Assembly: GCF_054482525.1 (NCBI RefSeq)
Contig: NZ_CM137006.1
DNA: 64,000 nt
Direction: 5' to 3' (one strand)
Position numbers: made by a program. Shown in pieces: positions 39,001 to 48,000 of the stretch; position 1 is the stretch's first letter; every line of letters starts with the position of its first letter.

Positions 39001-42000
39001 GAGCTGGCTGTGCAGGTGGGTATTCGTCCGGAGTATCTCGACCGCTTGCCTCATGCGTTTTCCGGCGGGCAGCGGCAACGTATCGCCATTGCCAGAGCAC
39101 TCTCTTCGCAGCCTGACGTGATTGTGCTTGATGAACCAACCTCGGCGCTGGATATCTCCGTGCAGGCGCAGATCCTCAATTTACTGGTAACGCTACAGGA
39201 AAATCGCGAGCTGACTTATGTGTTGATTTCACACAATGTCTCGGTGATACGTCATATGAGCGATCGGGTGGCGGTAATGTATCTCGGACAGATTGTGGAA
39301 CTAGGAGACGCGCAACAGGTGCTGACAGCTCCGGCACATCCATACACCCGATTATTGCTGGATTCCCTCCCCGCCATTGATAAACCGCTGGAGGAAGAAT
39401 GGGCATTACGTAAAACGGATCTACCAGGAAACCGCACGTTGCCACAAGGCTGTTTTTTCCGTGAACGTTGCCCTCTGGCAACCGACGGATGTGAAGTCCG
39501 GCAATCATTAACAATAAGGGAGGACGGACGTGAGATCCGGTGCTGGCGGGCGCTGTAGGACGCGGCATCCGGCTATTGCATGTCTGCGGAAACGTTATGC
39601 GTCATAGTTTTTTTTAACGTTTCCATCAACGCCTGCGCCGCAGTAGAAAGCTTATGGTGTGACGAACGCAGTACGCCTACTCGTCGCTCAATCACTGGAT
39701 TATCCAGTTCCAGACACACTGCGCCCAGTTCGCTCATCTGCCTGCGGCACAGCGCAGGCACAGCGCTTCCTCCCAAACCGTTTGCCACCAGCCGCCCAAC
39801 CGTAACCAGTTGATGGCTTTCCAGCGCCACTTCCAGTTGCGTTCCACTTTGTGCCAACTGCTCCTCCAGCATCAACCTGACGGCTGACGGTCGCTGGAGG
39901 GTGATAAAATCGAGCGTCAGCAAATCCCGCCAACTCACGCGTTGCCGATTTGCCAGTCGTGAATCGGCTGGAACAATAGCGACAAACCGATCCACGCCCA
40001 GTGGGGTAAAATGCACATGGCCGCAATAGTCAGGTTCAAAGGCAATACCCATCTCCACACGCCCTTCGCTCACCATTTCGATCACCTGCTCATTCACCAC
40101 ATCGTGCACGGTGACATTAATCCCTGAATAACAATCGCGGAAGGTTTTCAGCACCGGAGGCAGAACGTTGGCTGCAAATGACGGCATCGCTGCCACCGAG
40201 ACTTTGCCCCGCCTGAGCGTGAATCGCTGACGCATGGCCTCCTCAGTGTTATCCCAGTCAGCCAGCAAAGGCCGTGCCATCGACAATAGCGTTTCCCCCT
40301 CCTGGGTTAATGTCACTTTTCGCGTAGTACGCAGCAGTAAAGCGCCCCCTAAGGCATCTTCCAGTCCTTTAATGGCAAGACTTAGCGCAGGCTGCGACAT
40401 ATTCAGCCGTTCACTGGCATGGGCAAAGTTCAGAGTGTGAGCTACCGCTAAAAACGCGCGTAACTGTTTGATGCTCATTTTCATCTGGCACTCCGTTAAC
40501 CTACTGAATACATTTAATTAACATTATATTGATAAATAATACAAATGAATGAGTCACAAATTTAAAATTAACAAATCATTTTTTGCCCTTAATGATGTTG
40601 AAAAGGACAACTGGAGGGCAACTGTATGGCTGGGTTGGATAAACGGGTCGCTACGTATCACGAGGCGCTTGAAGGACTTACCAATGAGATGACGATTCTG
40701 GCAGGAGGTTTTGGCCTGTGCGGCATCCCGGAGAATCTGATTGCTGAAGTTCGCCACCGTGGAGTAACCGGATTAACGGTGGTTTCCAATAACTGTGGCG
40801 TAGATGGTTTTGGACTGGGTGTACTACTGGAAAGCCGACAGATCCGTAAAGTCGTCGCTTCTTATGTTGGCGAGAATGCTTTGTTTGAAAAACAGGTGCT
40901 TAACGGCGAACTGGAGGCGATTCTCACACCACAAGGAACCCTGGCAGAACAACTGCGCGCAGGCGGCGCGGGTATCCCGGCGTTCTTTACTGCCACCGGT
41001 TACGGTACTCCCGTTGCCGAAGGGAAAGAAGTCCGCGAATTCAACGGTCGCCCGTACATCATGGAACAGGCTATCACCGGTGATTTTGCCCTGGTCAAAG
41101 GCTGGAAAGCCGACTGGTACGGCAACGTGATTTATCGTCATACCGCGCAAAACTTCAACCCACTGATGGCGGCTGCCGGAAAAATCACCGTGGTGGAAGT
41201 GGAAGAAATAGTGCCACCTGGTGAACTTGATCCTGCCGCTATCCATACCCCGGGGATTTTTGTTAATCGCGTCATTCAGGGGCAATTTGAAAAACGCATT
41301 GAACAACGCACCCTTAGCCGCAAAGGAGCCTGACCATGTTAACCCGTGAACAAATGGCGATGCGAGTCGCCCGCGAATTGCGCGATGGCTATTACGTCAA
41401 TCTCGGCATTGGTATCCCGACCCTGGTGGCAAACTACATTCCTGACGGGATGGATGTGATGTTGCAGTCAGAAAACGGTTTGCTGGGAATGGGCGCATTT
41501 CCTACGGAAGACGAACTGGACGCCGACATGATTAATGCCGGTAAACAAACCGTTACCGCGCGGAAAGGCGCGGCAATTTTCGATTCGGCGCAATCATTCG
41601 CCATGATCCGTGGCGGTCATGTGGATCTGACTGTACTTGGCGCATTTGAAGTGGATGTGAATGGCAACATTGCCTCATGGATGATCCCCGGCAAGATGGT
41701 TAAAGGCATGGGCGGTGCCATGGATCTGGTTGCCGGTGCCGAGAATATTATTGTGGTAATGACCCACGCCTCCAAATCCGGCGAATCCAAACTGCTTCCT
41801 GACTGTACCCTTCCGTTGACCGGCGCCGGATGCATCAAACGCGTCTTAACCGACCTTGCTCTGCTGGAAATTGCTGACGGAGCTTTCATTCTGCGCGAGC
41901 GCGCGCCGGGAATCAGCGTTGCGGAAATCATCGCCAAAACCGCCGGTAAGTTGTTTGTGCCGGAACATGTCCCGGAAATGCAATTCAACTGAGGAATCAC

Positions 42001-45000: not shown

Positions 45001-48000
45001 CCGCAATCTGGGCCGTCGAAGCTGCGCTCATTGCCGGAATTTTGCTGGTAGTGATTTTTGGATATCGCAATATTCATGGAAGACTGGCAGAAGGAAGCCG
45101 TACAGCGGTAGGCGGCGCAATTCTGGCTGCGATGAACACCGCCTCAGAATATGGCTTCGGTGCGGTTATCGCCGCCCTACCCGGTTTTCTGGTGCTCTCA
45201 AAGGCGCTGGCCGCCATTCCTGATCCATTACTCAACGAAGCCATCAGCATCACCACACTTGCCGGAATTACCGGTTCAGCGTCCGGCGGGATGAGTATTG
45301 CTCTTGCGGCGATGTCCGACACTTTTATTGCCGCTGCGCACGCTGCCAATATTCCACTGGAAGTTTTTCACCGCGTGGCATCTATGGCCAGTGGCGGCAT
45401 GGATACATTGCCCCATAACGGCGCTGTGATCACCCTGCTGGCAATTACTGGGCTGAGTCACCGTCAGGCTTACGGCGGCATCTTCGCAATTACGATCATT
45501 AAAAGTCTGGCCGTGCTGTTTATCATCGGCGTGTACTACACCACCGGCATTGTCTAAGGAAAATCATCATGAATTTACAAGGTAAAACTGCGCTGGTGAC
45601 GGGGTCCACCAGCGGTATCGGACTCGGTATTGCTCAGACACTGGCAAACGCTGGCGCGCAAGTGATCCTCAACGGCTTCGGTGATGTTGACGCGGCAATC
45701 AATGCGGTTTCTCGTATGGGTAAAACGCCTGGCTATCATGAGGCAGACCTCAGCGATGAATCGCAAATTATCAACATGATGGCCTACGCACGGCGGGAAT
45801 TTGGCGGTGTGGACATTCTGGTGAATAACGCCGGGATCCAGTATGTCTCCCCGGTTGAATCTTTCCCTGTAGAAAAATGGAACGCCATTATCGCTATCAA
45901 TCTCTCTTCTGTCTTTCACACCACGCGTCTGGCACTGCCAGAAATGCGCACTCGTAACTGGGGTCGGATCATTAACATTGCCTCTGTGCATGGGCTGGTA
46001 GCGTCGAAAGACAAATCAGCTTATGTTGCGGCAAAACATGGCGTGGTGGGACTCACAAAGACCATTGCTCTGGAAACTGCGCAGACGGGTATTACCTGCA
46101 ACGCGCTCTGCCCTGGCTGGGTGCTGACGCCGCTGGTACAACAGCAGATTGATAAGCGCATTGCGCAAGGCGAAGATGCGGAAAGCGCGCGTGACGCCTT
46201 ACTGGCAGAAAAACAGCCTTCTCGTGAATTTGTGACTCCGCAACAACTGGGTGAACTGGCGCTGTTTCTCTGTTCGGATGCGGCAGCACAAGTGCGTGGG
46301 GTGGCGTGGAATATGGATGGCGGTTGGGTAGCGCAGTAAGTGTTCGCCGGATGACACGTCATCCGGCAATGCTTTACGATTTCAACTGGTAATCAAGCGT
46401 AATTTCAGCTTTCAGTACCTGAGAAACCGGGCATCCTGCTTTTGCTTTCTGGATGATGCCGTCAAAGGTGGAGGTATCAATACCCGGCACCGCAACTTCG
46501 CTCTTCAGTGCGATTTTAGTAATCGCAAAACCGGCATCCACTTTATCCAGCGACACATCGGCGGTGGTATCAATCGATGTTGGCGTGAATCCCGCTTCCC
46601 CCAGCATTAATGAAAGCGCCATTGAGAAACATGCGGCATGCGCTGCGCCAATCAGTTCTTCAGGGTTGGTTCCTTTTTCGCCTTCAAAACGCGTGTTAAA
46701 TCCATACGGCTGTTGGTTCAGCACGCCACTCTCGGTGGATACTGTTCCCTTCCCGCGTTTGATATCGCCTTCCCAGTGTGCCTGACCTTTCTTATGGATT
46801 GTCATTGTTGCTCTCCTGTGGGCTTAAAAAGGAAATTATAGACTACGTGAGAAACAGCACGAGGATAAGCAGGATATTCCGAATAAAATCCGGCGAAAAC
46901 ATTATCTCTGTACTTAAATTAAATTCCCACAATAGATAACAGGAAATATATGACTCAAAAGATATTGTATCAATATTAATCGATTCACACCAATAACAAT
47001 CCCTATGAATATCATAGTGTTAAAATATAAAAATTATCAACCAGGACTAATCTTAACAACGAAGCGGCAAATATTTGCCATGCTGAATGTGCTTTATAAA
47101 TCTGCGATCCGTAGCAGACACCATAAATACACAGACACGGAGAATCACTATGTTTACTTATTATCAGGCAGAAAATTCAACAGCAGAACCCGCTCTGGTT
47201 AATGCCATTGAGCAAGGCCTTCGGGCAGAGCACGGTGTTGTCACTGAAGATGACATTCTCATGGAGCTGACCAAATGGGTGGAAGCTTCTGATAACGACA
47301 TCCTCAGTGATATCTACCAGCAAACGATCAATTATGTGGTCAGTGGCCAGCACCCTACGCTTTAAGGTGCTATGCTTGATCGGCAACCTAATTTAGGGGT
47401 TTAGCACGTGTTTCTTCGCTACGGCGATGTTGTCCTTAAAACTAGCAACAGGATTGAGGAGTTAAAATGAAATCGAACCGTCAGGCACGTCATATTCTTG
47501 GACTGGACCATAAAATTTCTAACCAGCGCAAAATAGTTACCGAAGGTGACAAATCCAGCGTGGTAAATAACCCAACCGGCAGAAAACGCCCCTCTGAAAA
47601 GTAATTCATAACCATCAGTCCTCAATGACGATTAAACACCATTGCCTGCGCAATGGTGTTTTTGTTTTTATCTGCTTTATACTTGGGGCCGACGCCCTGG
47701 CGGTAAAGCAAAGACGATAAAAGCGTGCCAGGGATGGATATTCAAAAAAGAGTGAGTGACATGGAACCAAAAACAAAAAAACAGCGTTCGCTTTATATTC
47801 CTTACGCTGGCCCTGTACTGCTGGAATTTCCGTTGTTGAATAAAGGCAGTGCCTTCAGCATGGAAGAACGCCGTAACTTCAACCTGCTGGGGTTACTGCC
47901 GGAAGTGGTCGAAACCATCGAAGAACAAGCGGAACGAGCATGGATCCAGTATCAGGGATTCAAAACCGAAATCGACAAACACATCTACCTGCGTAACATC

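Follow-up and report, generated by a model that had tools for sequence, protein, structure and literature searches.

Escherichia coli K-12 uses acetoacetate and short-chain fatty acids by way of the atoSC-atoDAEB genes, which comprise the two-component regulatory system AtoSC and the transporter AtoE but do not include a 3-hydroxybutyrate dehydrogenase. In Pseudomonas putida and Pseudomonas aeruginosa, the route from (R)-3-hydroxybutyrate over acetoacetate and acetoacetyl-CoA to acetyl-CoA has been shown experimentally, with bdhA and the sigma54 activator PA2005 in P. aeruginosa and a LysR-type regulator over the operon leading from 3-hydroxybutyrate to acetyl-CoA in P. putida (PMC13390443). 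A gene block that may serve the same purpose is located between ddpF and osmC in a stretch of 64,000 nucleotides (nt) of contig NZ_CM137006.1 (assembly GCF_054482525.1). This stretch is called the window here, and all coordinates are window positions. The block can be regarded with good confidence as an operon with one promoter under LysR control, by which 3-hydroxybutyrate and acetoacetate are taken up and degraded. Ancestrally, it would have occupied the ddpF-osmC junction, where most E. coli strains lack it today, and homologous recombination would have spread it among its E. coli carriers. This pathway type is already well known. What is unlike the situation elsewhere is the single LysR-linked operon that includes a transporter, a dehydrogenase of the 3HCDH family from an uncharacterized clade, and a carrier that seems to be a very remote relative of GntP. 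No publication on the E. coli block was found in the full-text literature searched; a paper on carnitine in Citrobacter amalonaticus concerns other genes.

Seven open reading frames (ORFs) are positioned between ddpF and osmC. A LysR-type regulator is encoded on the minus strand (39573..40484) and is separated by a control region (40485..40625) from six divergently transcribed, co-oriented genes on the plus strand. These encode subunit A (40626..41333) and subunit B (41336..41992) of a predicted 3-oxoacid CoA-transferase, a predicted acetoacetyl-CoA thiolase (acetyl-CoA C-acetyltransferase; 42002..43207), an NAD-dependent dehydrogenase of the 3HCDH family (43197..44120), a putative secondary carrier (44166..45557), and a short-chain dehydrogenase/reductase (SDR; 45569..46339). 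The sequence of strain PCN033 is 100% identical to the window over the block, and ddpF and osmC enclose all seven of these genes in the RefSeq annotation of this strain. Both the ORF listing of the window and this annotation bear out the coordinates and the divergent layout given in the original prediction. The spacing between the six co-oriented genes ranges from −11 to +45 bp, and they are therefore considered one operon.

In K-12 strain MG1655, osmC directly follows ddpF, and the block is absent, in line with the original prediction. An exact alignment to the K-12 junction placed the left breakpoint at 39558|39559, just past the stop codon of the flanking core gene ddpF (38632..39558, plus strand, by the PCN033 annotation and comparison to K-12). 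The two sequences have TGAC(G/A)CGTCATCCGGCAATGC in common at the right breakpoint, 46351|46352, which is followed by the second flanking core gene osmC (46374..46805, minus strand, by the ORF listing and the comparison to K-12 and PCN033). Boundaries “near 39560 and 46345” had been expected, and this estimate was accurate. The DNA absent from K-12, as delimited by aligning the window with the K-12 junction and with other taxa, comprises 6,793 bp (39559..46351) and stands opposite 33 bp of a sequence resembling repetitive extragenic palindromic (REP) elements in K-12.

The assignment of the pathway is carried by the SDR, the CoA-transferase, and the thiolase. The SDR passed both curated cut-offs for 3-hydroxybutyrate dehydrogenases, with 371 bits for NF009093 (cut-off, 258) and 343.5 bits for TIGR01963 (cut-off, 307.05), and it matched the PDB entries 5yss with 490 bits and 2q2q, the P. 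putida 3-hydroxybutyrate dehydrogenase, with 390 bits. The catalytic residues Ser139, Tyr152, and Lys156, the carboxylate-binding residues Gln91, His141, Lys149, and Gln193, and Trp184 are all intact. We take the four carboxylate-binding residues to be the equivalents, by a constant offset of 3, of Q94, H144, K152, and Q196 in the Pseudomonas fragi enzyme of Ito et al. from 2006. The SDR is predicted with high confidence to be an (R)-3-hydroxybutyrate dehydrogenase (EC 1.1.1.30), which should catalyze an NAD-dependent, (R)-specific oxidation.

Subunit A of the CoA-transferase passed the cut-off of TIGR02429 (244.8 bits versus 128.5) and missed that of the AtoD equivalog NF007394 (198.9 bits versus 315). 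Subunit B passed TIGR02428 (327 bits versus 243.55) and possesses the SENG motif at residues 45 to 48 with the catalytic Glu46. Its closest solved relative is ScoB from Bacillus subtilis (3cdk, 259 bits), compared to 220 bits for AtoA from E. coli (5dbn). Both proteins are securely predicted to form a family I 3-oxoacid CoA-transferase of the ScoAB/PcaIJ type, nearer to Sco than to Ato; an enzyme of this type would use succinyl-CoA as the CoA donor and acetoacetate as the acceptor. The thiolase passed TIGR01930 (501 bits versus 240.55) and remained just below NF004206 (677 bits versus 688). It contains Cys88, the NEAF motif, His350, and Cys380 and matched 8gqj with 612 bits plus many acetyl-CoA acetyltransferases in the PDB. 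This makes a secure prediction of an acetoacetyl-CoA-type enzyme (thiolase II, acetyl-CoA C-acetyltransferase).

The secure assignments of the SDR, transferase, and thiolase therefore lead to the textbook route from (R)-3-hydroxybutyrate via acetoacetate and acetoacetyl-CoA to two acetyl-CoA, which supports the earlier proposal of a 3-hydroxybutyrate and acetoacetate pathway ending in acetyl-CoA. In the proposed sequence of events, the carrier would import 3-hydroxybutyrate or acetoacetate, the SDR would oxidize (R)-3-hydroxybutyrate to acetoacetate, the two-subunit transferase of the Sco type would turn acetoacetate into acetoacetyl-CoA, and the thiolase would cleave acetoacetyl-CoA into two molecules of acetyl-CoA. 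The 3HCDH-family enzyme would most likely bring in the (S)-enantiomer, and we prefer a reaction in which free (S)-3-hydroxybutyrate is oxidized directly to acetoacetate over an oxidation of (S)-3-hydroxybutyryl-CoA.

With the Pseudomonas systems, the block shares an (R)-specific SDR, a two-subunit 3-oxoacid CoA-transferase, and a thiolase. The P. aeruginosa genes also include the dhcR-dhcAB-atoB...bdhA-PA2004 cluster, and the likeness to the PA1998-PA2004 genes is drawn here at the level of chemistry. The Pseudomonas genes are scattered across several loci, with sigma54 control of some of them, whereas the block unites all steps plus a transporter in one LysR-linked operon and adds a 3HCDH-family enzyme of an uncharacterized clade. 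The ato system of E. coli likewise combines a family I two-subunit CoA-transferase with a thiolase and a transporter to convert acetoacetate into acetyl-CoA. The block differs from it by the LysR-type regulator, the GntP-like carrier, the 3-hydroxybutyrate dehydrogenase, and the transferase being nearer to Sco.

The LysR-type protein gave 52 matches to LysR-family NCBIfam models over residues 3 to 298, none of them at an equivalog cut-off, and its orthologue in Citrobacter possesses the HTH_1 and LysR_substrate domains. Acetoacetate or 3-hydroxybutyrate would presumably be the signal on which it activates the operon. Its length is 303 amino acids here and 296 in most strains. Compared to the other carriers, PCN033 lacks 1 bp in a T-run (about 39607 to 39615), which replaces the last 3 residues by 10, so that the protein ends with ...KKTMTHNVSADMQ instead of ...KKTYDA, and its stop codon is 14 bp away from that of ddpF.

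The divergent control region comprises 141 bp, is AT-rich, and contains a GGAGG in front of the ATG. A candidate promoter with the −35 hexamer TTAACA (40568 to 40573) and the −10 hexamer AATGAT (40591 to 40596) is preceded by the motifs GTTAAC (40495 to 40500) and ATTAAC (40517 to 40522), which are 22 bp apart, and by ATTGATAA (40528 to 40535). The overall counts in the scans for promoters and terminators were at chance level, and this promoter was singled out only by its conservation across genera: the hexamers and the upstream motifs show no or almost no variation among 11 sequences taken from Escherichia, Citrobacter, Raoultella, Enterobacter, Serratia, and Pluralibacter. The hexamers are likely the promoter of the operon, and the upstream motifs are candidate operator sites of the LysR-type regulator. 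At the other end, a perfect 10+10 palindrome (46346..46367) between the stop codons of the convergent genes bdh, which encodes the SDR, and osmC folds with −22.1 kcal/mol (z = −5.3 compared to shuffled sequences). Edge alignment showed that the 3′ half of the palindrome lies within sequence that K-12 also has. This hairpin probably terminates both the bdh and the osmC transcripts.

The carrier is a membrane protein of 463 amino acids for which no match was obtained in Pfam, NCBIfam, or the PDB sequences, even at E ≤ 10. It belongs to a large family, and 5 of 24 aligned homologues (67 to 92% identity) match PF02447, GntP_permease, with a best E value of 4e-8. An AlphaFold model of moderate quality (predicted local distance difference test [pLDDT], 58; predicted template modeling [TM] score, 0.65) matched only elevator-type anion carriers, namely MleN, TRAP SiaQM, NaS1/INDY, Pho90, and AbgT, with TM scores of 0.45 to 0.6. 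Because the model is only moderate, these fold matches are supportive and not decisive. In all contexts examined, the gene adjoins that of a 3-hydroxybutyrate dehydrogenase or a CoA-transferase. The carrier would thus be a very remote GntP relative within the ion-transporter superfamily and an importer of short-chain hydroxy or keto acids such as 3-hydroxybutyrate and acetoacetate, which fits all these contexts. The “permease” of the original prediction can be kept as a secondary carrier, with an indirect link to the GntP family only.

On four metagenomic contigs (L050, L051, L058, and L059), a homologue of the carrier with 67 to 70% identity is preceded by a gene for a CBS-domain protein and followed by one for a family I CoA-transferase of about 680 amino acids, in which subunits A and B are fused. 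These units adjoin genes of the respiratory chain. Carrier and fused transferase represent a different, two-gene coupling of transport to CoA activation.

The dehydrogenase encoded between the thiolase and the carrier genes is the least conventional component. Precomputed Pfam results for its cluster representative and its orthologues contain both the 3HCDH_N and 3HCDH domains (PF02737 and PF00725), and the motifs of the family are intact: GAGLMG as the Rossmann GxGxxG, NTS, the catalytic pair His140/Glu152, and GFVGNR as the GFxxNR. Every NCBIfam cut-off was missed, with FHMPC-DH as the best model (220 bits versus 500) and 142 bits versus 592 for carnitine dehydrogenase. The models for dehydrogenases of CoA esters gave 180.9 versus 408 (PRK05808, Hbd), 194.6 versus 508 (PRK08268), 165.8 versus 669 (PaaH), and 140 versus 870 (FadB), and a distant relative with 48% identity was likewise below these cut-offs. 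Within the PDB, FHMPC-DH (4om8), which uses a non-CoA substrate, matched over the full length with 170 bits, followed by clostridial Hbd (4kug, 139 bits) and lambda-crystallin (117 bits). No full-length relative with more than 49% identity was found outside of its own clade among 1.84 billion representatives searched. The name “3-hydroxyacyl-CoA dehydrogenase” in the original prediction needs a qualification: the enzyme may not act on a CoA ester because no curated cut-off was reached and the closest solved relative uses a non-CoA substrate.

Members of the 3HCDH family are stereospecific for L/(S)-3-hydroxy groups and the SDR for the (R) form, and the dehydrogenase is therefore proposed to provide an (S)-3-hydroxybutyrate branch. 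For this branch, the free acid is favored over the CoA ester as substrate. FHMPC-DH, lambda-crystallin/L-gulonate 3-dehydrogenase (3f3s and 3ado), and L-carnitine dehydrogenase have the same fold and the same His-Glu pair. They are a precedent for 3HCDH members acting on non-CoA 3-hydroxy acids, although the enzyme of the block reaches none of their curated cut-offs. A further free-acid enzyme of this family, an (S)-3-hydroxybutyrate dehydrogenase from Desulfotomaculum ruminis, has reportedly been described in Applied and Environmental Microbiology in 2021. The gene for the nearest relative outside of the clade (49% identity) is located directly in front of a gene for a protein with 67% identity to the carrier of the block. 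Longer contigs of the same distant lineage contain a sigma54 activator gene, a gene for a dehydrogenase with 48% identity, and a carrier gene, with a 4-bp overlap, and no gene for a CoA-transferase, ligase, or thiolase was found near this unit on the longer contigs of the lineage. Three further gene contexts (those of P0233, P0235, and P0492 from Collimonas) were uninformative.

The sequence form HFWHPPHFIPLVE, shared with FHMPC-DH and different from NPAPVMKLVE in Hbd, was considered as a marker of free-acid enzymes. It was rejected as diagnostic because xPLVE variants are widespread among the 150 nearest representatives. Such variants occur in FadB as well.

A tentative, more specific proposal goes one step further. 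The dehydrogenase would be a free-acid (S)-3-hydroxybutyrate enzyme of an uncharacterized clade that forms an “import and oxidize” module together with the carrier, so that two dehydrogenases of opposite stereospecificity flank the transporter gene. If true, one operon would allow the complete use of racemic 3-hydroxybutyrate, and recombination with a cryptic-clade Escherichia would have brought this capacity back into E. coli lineages here and there, among them extraintestinal pathogenic E. coli, Shiga toxin-producing E. coli O145:H28, and strains from mastitis.

Alternatively, the dehydrogenase may be a conventional (S)-3-hydroxybutyryl-CoA dehydrogenase in the same operon and pathway. The CoA-transferase would then activate (S)-3-hydroxybutyrate, followed by oxidation to acetoacetyl-CoA and cleavage. 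This alternative is credible because of the similarity to Hbd and the 11-bp overlap that couples the dehydrogenase and thiolase genes; it also agrees with the presence of 3HCDH_N plus 3HCDH, with Hbd structures at 130 to 139 bits, and with the naming as such an enzyme in RefSeq and JGI. It is nevertheless somewhat doubtful. All curated cut-offs for Hbd, PaaH, and FadB were missed, for instance, with 181 versus 408, and the best solved relative is a free-acid enzyme. The distant lineage has the dehydrogenase-carrier pair without a CoA-activating enzyme, and Serratia and Raoultella have not kept the overlapping arrangement with the thiolase gene. Moreover, transferases of the Sco type are known for 3-oxoacids rather than for 3-hydroxyacids.

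It is improbable that the operon serves another beta-hydroxy or beta-keto acid and uses 3-hydroxybutyrate as a side substrate. Candidates for such an acid would be acetoacetate derived from carnitine, as in the case of DhcAB in Pseudomonas, longer 3-hydroxyalkanoates from polyhydroxyalkanoates, or a sugar acid such as L-gulonate. UniRef indeed names the dehydrogenase “L-gulonate 3-dehydrogenase,” there are weak matches to the carnitine dehydrogenase models, and the carrier seems to be related to GntP, a family that transports sugar acids; in addition, transferases of the DhcAB type are tied to carnitine catabolism in P. aeruginosa (PMC12482172). The matches of the dehydrogenase to carnitine dehydrogenase and lambda-crystallin are, however, weaker than those to Hbd and FHMPC-DH, and the SDR is a high-confidence 3-hydroxybutyrate dehydrogenase with all carboxylate-binding residues present. 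Genes for BKACE, betainyl-CoA, or sugar acid metabolism were absent from the block and its neighborhood at about 40 loci.

The block is a variable part of the E. coli chromosome. Among 5,426 complete E. coli genomes, 231 (4.3%) had it, which agrees with the accessory, strain-specific status assumed before, and 226 of these carriers had at least 99% identity to the block. It was chromosomal in every one of the 231 carriers and on none of their plasmids. A contiguous ddpF-osmC junction of the K-12 type was found in 4,057 of the 5,426 genomes, and most of the remaining genomes have no ddpF at the junction site. Outside of E. coli, the seven genes occupy the ddpF-osmC interval on contigs of Citrobacter braakii, and this placement was found in about 20 Citrobacter species, which are all Citrobacter species sampled, as well as in two non-coli Escherichia lineages, Escherichia sp. 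E1V33 and the divergent “E. coli” SCPM-O-B-8794. Raoultella, Klebsiella, Serratia, Enterobacter, and Pluralibacter possess the block in other genomic contexts. A scan of one genome per species yielded 33 loci with the dehydrogenase gene, and the gene order in the tblastn table was identical at all of them; the seven-gene order is also kept in the contigs from Citrobacter and Serratia.

On contigs from Serratia marcescens (L005 and L006, 10545 to 11681), a small ORF and then a gene for an outer membrane porin of the Porin_4 family come after the seven-gene unit. This porin may be a dedicated entry route for the same substrates across the outer membrane.

The block does not differ from its surroundings in divergence from Citrobacter or in composition. 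The nucleotide identity between E. coli and Citrobacter is 74 to 82% in the block and 75 to 84% in ddpB-F, osmC, and maeA. A comparison of GC content and codon usage with the flanking core genes, which the original prediction had suggested as a check, revealed no atypical composition: the GC content is 0.540 in the block and 0.534 in the flanks, the GC content at third codon positions (GC3) is 0.547 and 0.569, respectively, and the codon usage is native, with a JS value of 0.012, below that between the two flanks. No integrase, transposase, insertion sequence, or tRNA was found at the edges of the block among the ORFs of the window and in the PCN033 annotation. Mobility genes being absent, the composition being flank-like, and the site being fixed in 231 genomes and in Citrobacter, the block does not have the features of a mobile genomic island. 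Because the same junction is occupied in Citrobacter and other Escherichia lineages, the divergence is flank-like, the composition is native, and mobility genes are absent, the block is best read as an old occupant of the ddpF-osmC junction common to Citrobacter and other Escherichia, and the K-12 state as a loss.

The diversity within E. coli needs to be considered separately. It was determined for eight carriers (PCN033, ECC-1470, O145:H28 RM12581, EC1515, O166:H15, EC93, 06-00048, and KY204). Their mean pairwise divergence was 0.61% in the block, whereas the left and right flanks gave 2.44% and 1.82%, respectively; the block value is 3 to 4 times lower, with a step-change within a few hundred bases of its edges. 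The divergence from Escherichia sp. E1V33 is about 2% for the block and about 7 to 8% for the flanks; that from SCPM-O-B-8794 is about equal for block and flanks, at 8 to 9%. The low diversity of the block and its closeness to the copy of the cryptic clade, compared to the flanks, therefore suggest a loss followed by a re-spread. The simplest reading of the data from these eight strains is that all copies in E. coli go back to one recent source with a relationship to cryptic-clade Escherichia and were moved by homologous recombination at the conserved flanks. That a mobile element or illegitimate recombination had put a foreign accessory island from outside Escherichia between ddpF and osmC in this lineage would agree with the patchy distribution in E. 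coli (231 of 5,426), the sharp breakpoints at the ddpF stop codon and within the REP-like palindrome, the imperfect 20-bp similarity between the edges, and the block diversity far below that of the flanks, which indicates lateral movement within Escherichia, but this is very unlikely given the same position and gene order in all sampled Citrobacter and other Escherichia lineages, the like divergence of block and flanks from Citrobacter, the flank-like GC, GC3, and codon usage, the edges without integrase, transposase, or tRNA genes, and the absence from plasmids. Of the “inserted island” in the original prediction, the patchy accessory block remains, and the foreign or mobile origin is not supported.

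REP-like 20-mers are located at both edges of the block, GACGCGGCATCCGGCTATTGC (39559 to 39579) on the left and GACACGTCATCCGGCAATGC (46353 to 46372) on the right. In most strains, the right-edge 20-mer reads GACGCG..., and the edge pair has 17 to 18 matches in 20 positions with one gap. A simple deletion between direct repeats was considered as the origin of the K-12 state and is a poor fit: K-12 keeps one copy of the 20-mer plus 33 unrelated REP-like bp, and such a deletion fails because these 33 extra bp have no clear counterpart.

Several carriers deviate from the intact block. In strain Z1323HEC0108, lysR is broken by about 1.2 kb of foreign ABC/TonB pseudogene fragments. BEC1-S17-ESBL-07 has a deletion that starts in the middle of the carrier gene and extends via bdh, osmC, bdm, and sra into maeA. 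Strain 06-00048 has a frameshift in the thiolase gene and an ISEc10 insertion between bdh and osmC. These are signs of a decay of the operon in some E. coli carriers, to which the altered LysR end of PCN033 can be added. Within the thiolase gene (42000 to 43000), a patch of about 22 single-nucleotide polymorphisms separates the allele of PCN033 and O166:H15 from that of ECC-1470, O145, and EC93, which suggests a small mosaic recombination tract in the otherwise near-identical block.

Evaluation of the block as an ancestral operon for 3-hydroxybutyrate and acetoacetate needs to consider some points that weigh against it. The searchable literature yielded neither growth nor expression or enzyme data for the block of E. 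coli, and we infer the CoA donor and the inducer, as well as the substrates and the direction of the flux. The assignment of the carrier leans on adjacency, on weak Pfam matches of its relatives, and on a model of low confidence. The free-acid role of the dehydrogenase was deduced from the gene context and from weak similarity, next to 139 bits to a genuine Hbd. The PPH..PLVE motif has no diagnostic value, and the dehydrogenase and thiolase genes of E. coli and Citrobacter overlap by 11 bp, as would an Hbd/thiolase pair of the beta-oxidation kind. The contrast in diversity was obtained from eight strains, and the loss and re-spread are putative.

3-Hydroxybutyrate is the main ketone body of the host and the monomer of bacterial polyhydroxybutyrate. 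E. coli strains of the K-12 type are not known to grow on 3-hydroxybutyrate, and the fitness of a strain in the environment, in inflamed tissue, or in a host that is fasting or ketotic could therefore depend on whether it has an operon of this kind. The block would also bear on the choice of production hosts for 3-hydroxybutyrate, and it may be the genetic basis of a trait that separates Citrobacter, Serratia, and Raoultella from typical E. coli. For genome evolution, it would show clearly how an ancestral locus can come to look like an “accessory” gene set when most strains of a species have lost it and homologous recombination has spread it anew. The uncharacterized dehydrogenase and the carrier are cheap and well-defined targets for enzymology.

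The neighborhood of the block varies as well. The ddp operon (33573 to 39558) is unusually variable among E. coli strains, and about 1,100 complete E. coli genomes have no ddpF at all at the junction site. The ddpF gene of PCN033 is only 95 to 96% identical to that of other strains, and only 3 genomes match its 3′ end with at least 99% identity. The mean GC content of the 64-kb window is 0.475, compared to 0.53 to 0.54 for the block plus the flanking genes, and other parts of the window are therefore AT-rich. A markedly AT-rich part is the osmC-bdm-sra intergenic stretch (46500 to 47750), with a GC content of 0.39 to 0.45.

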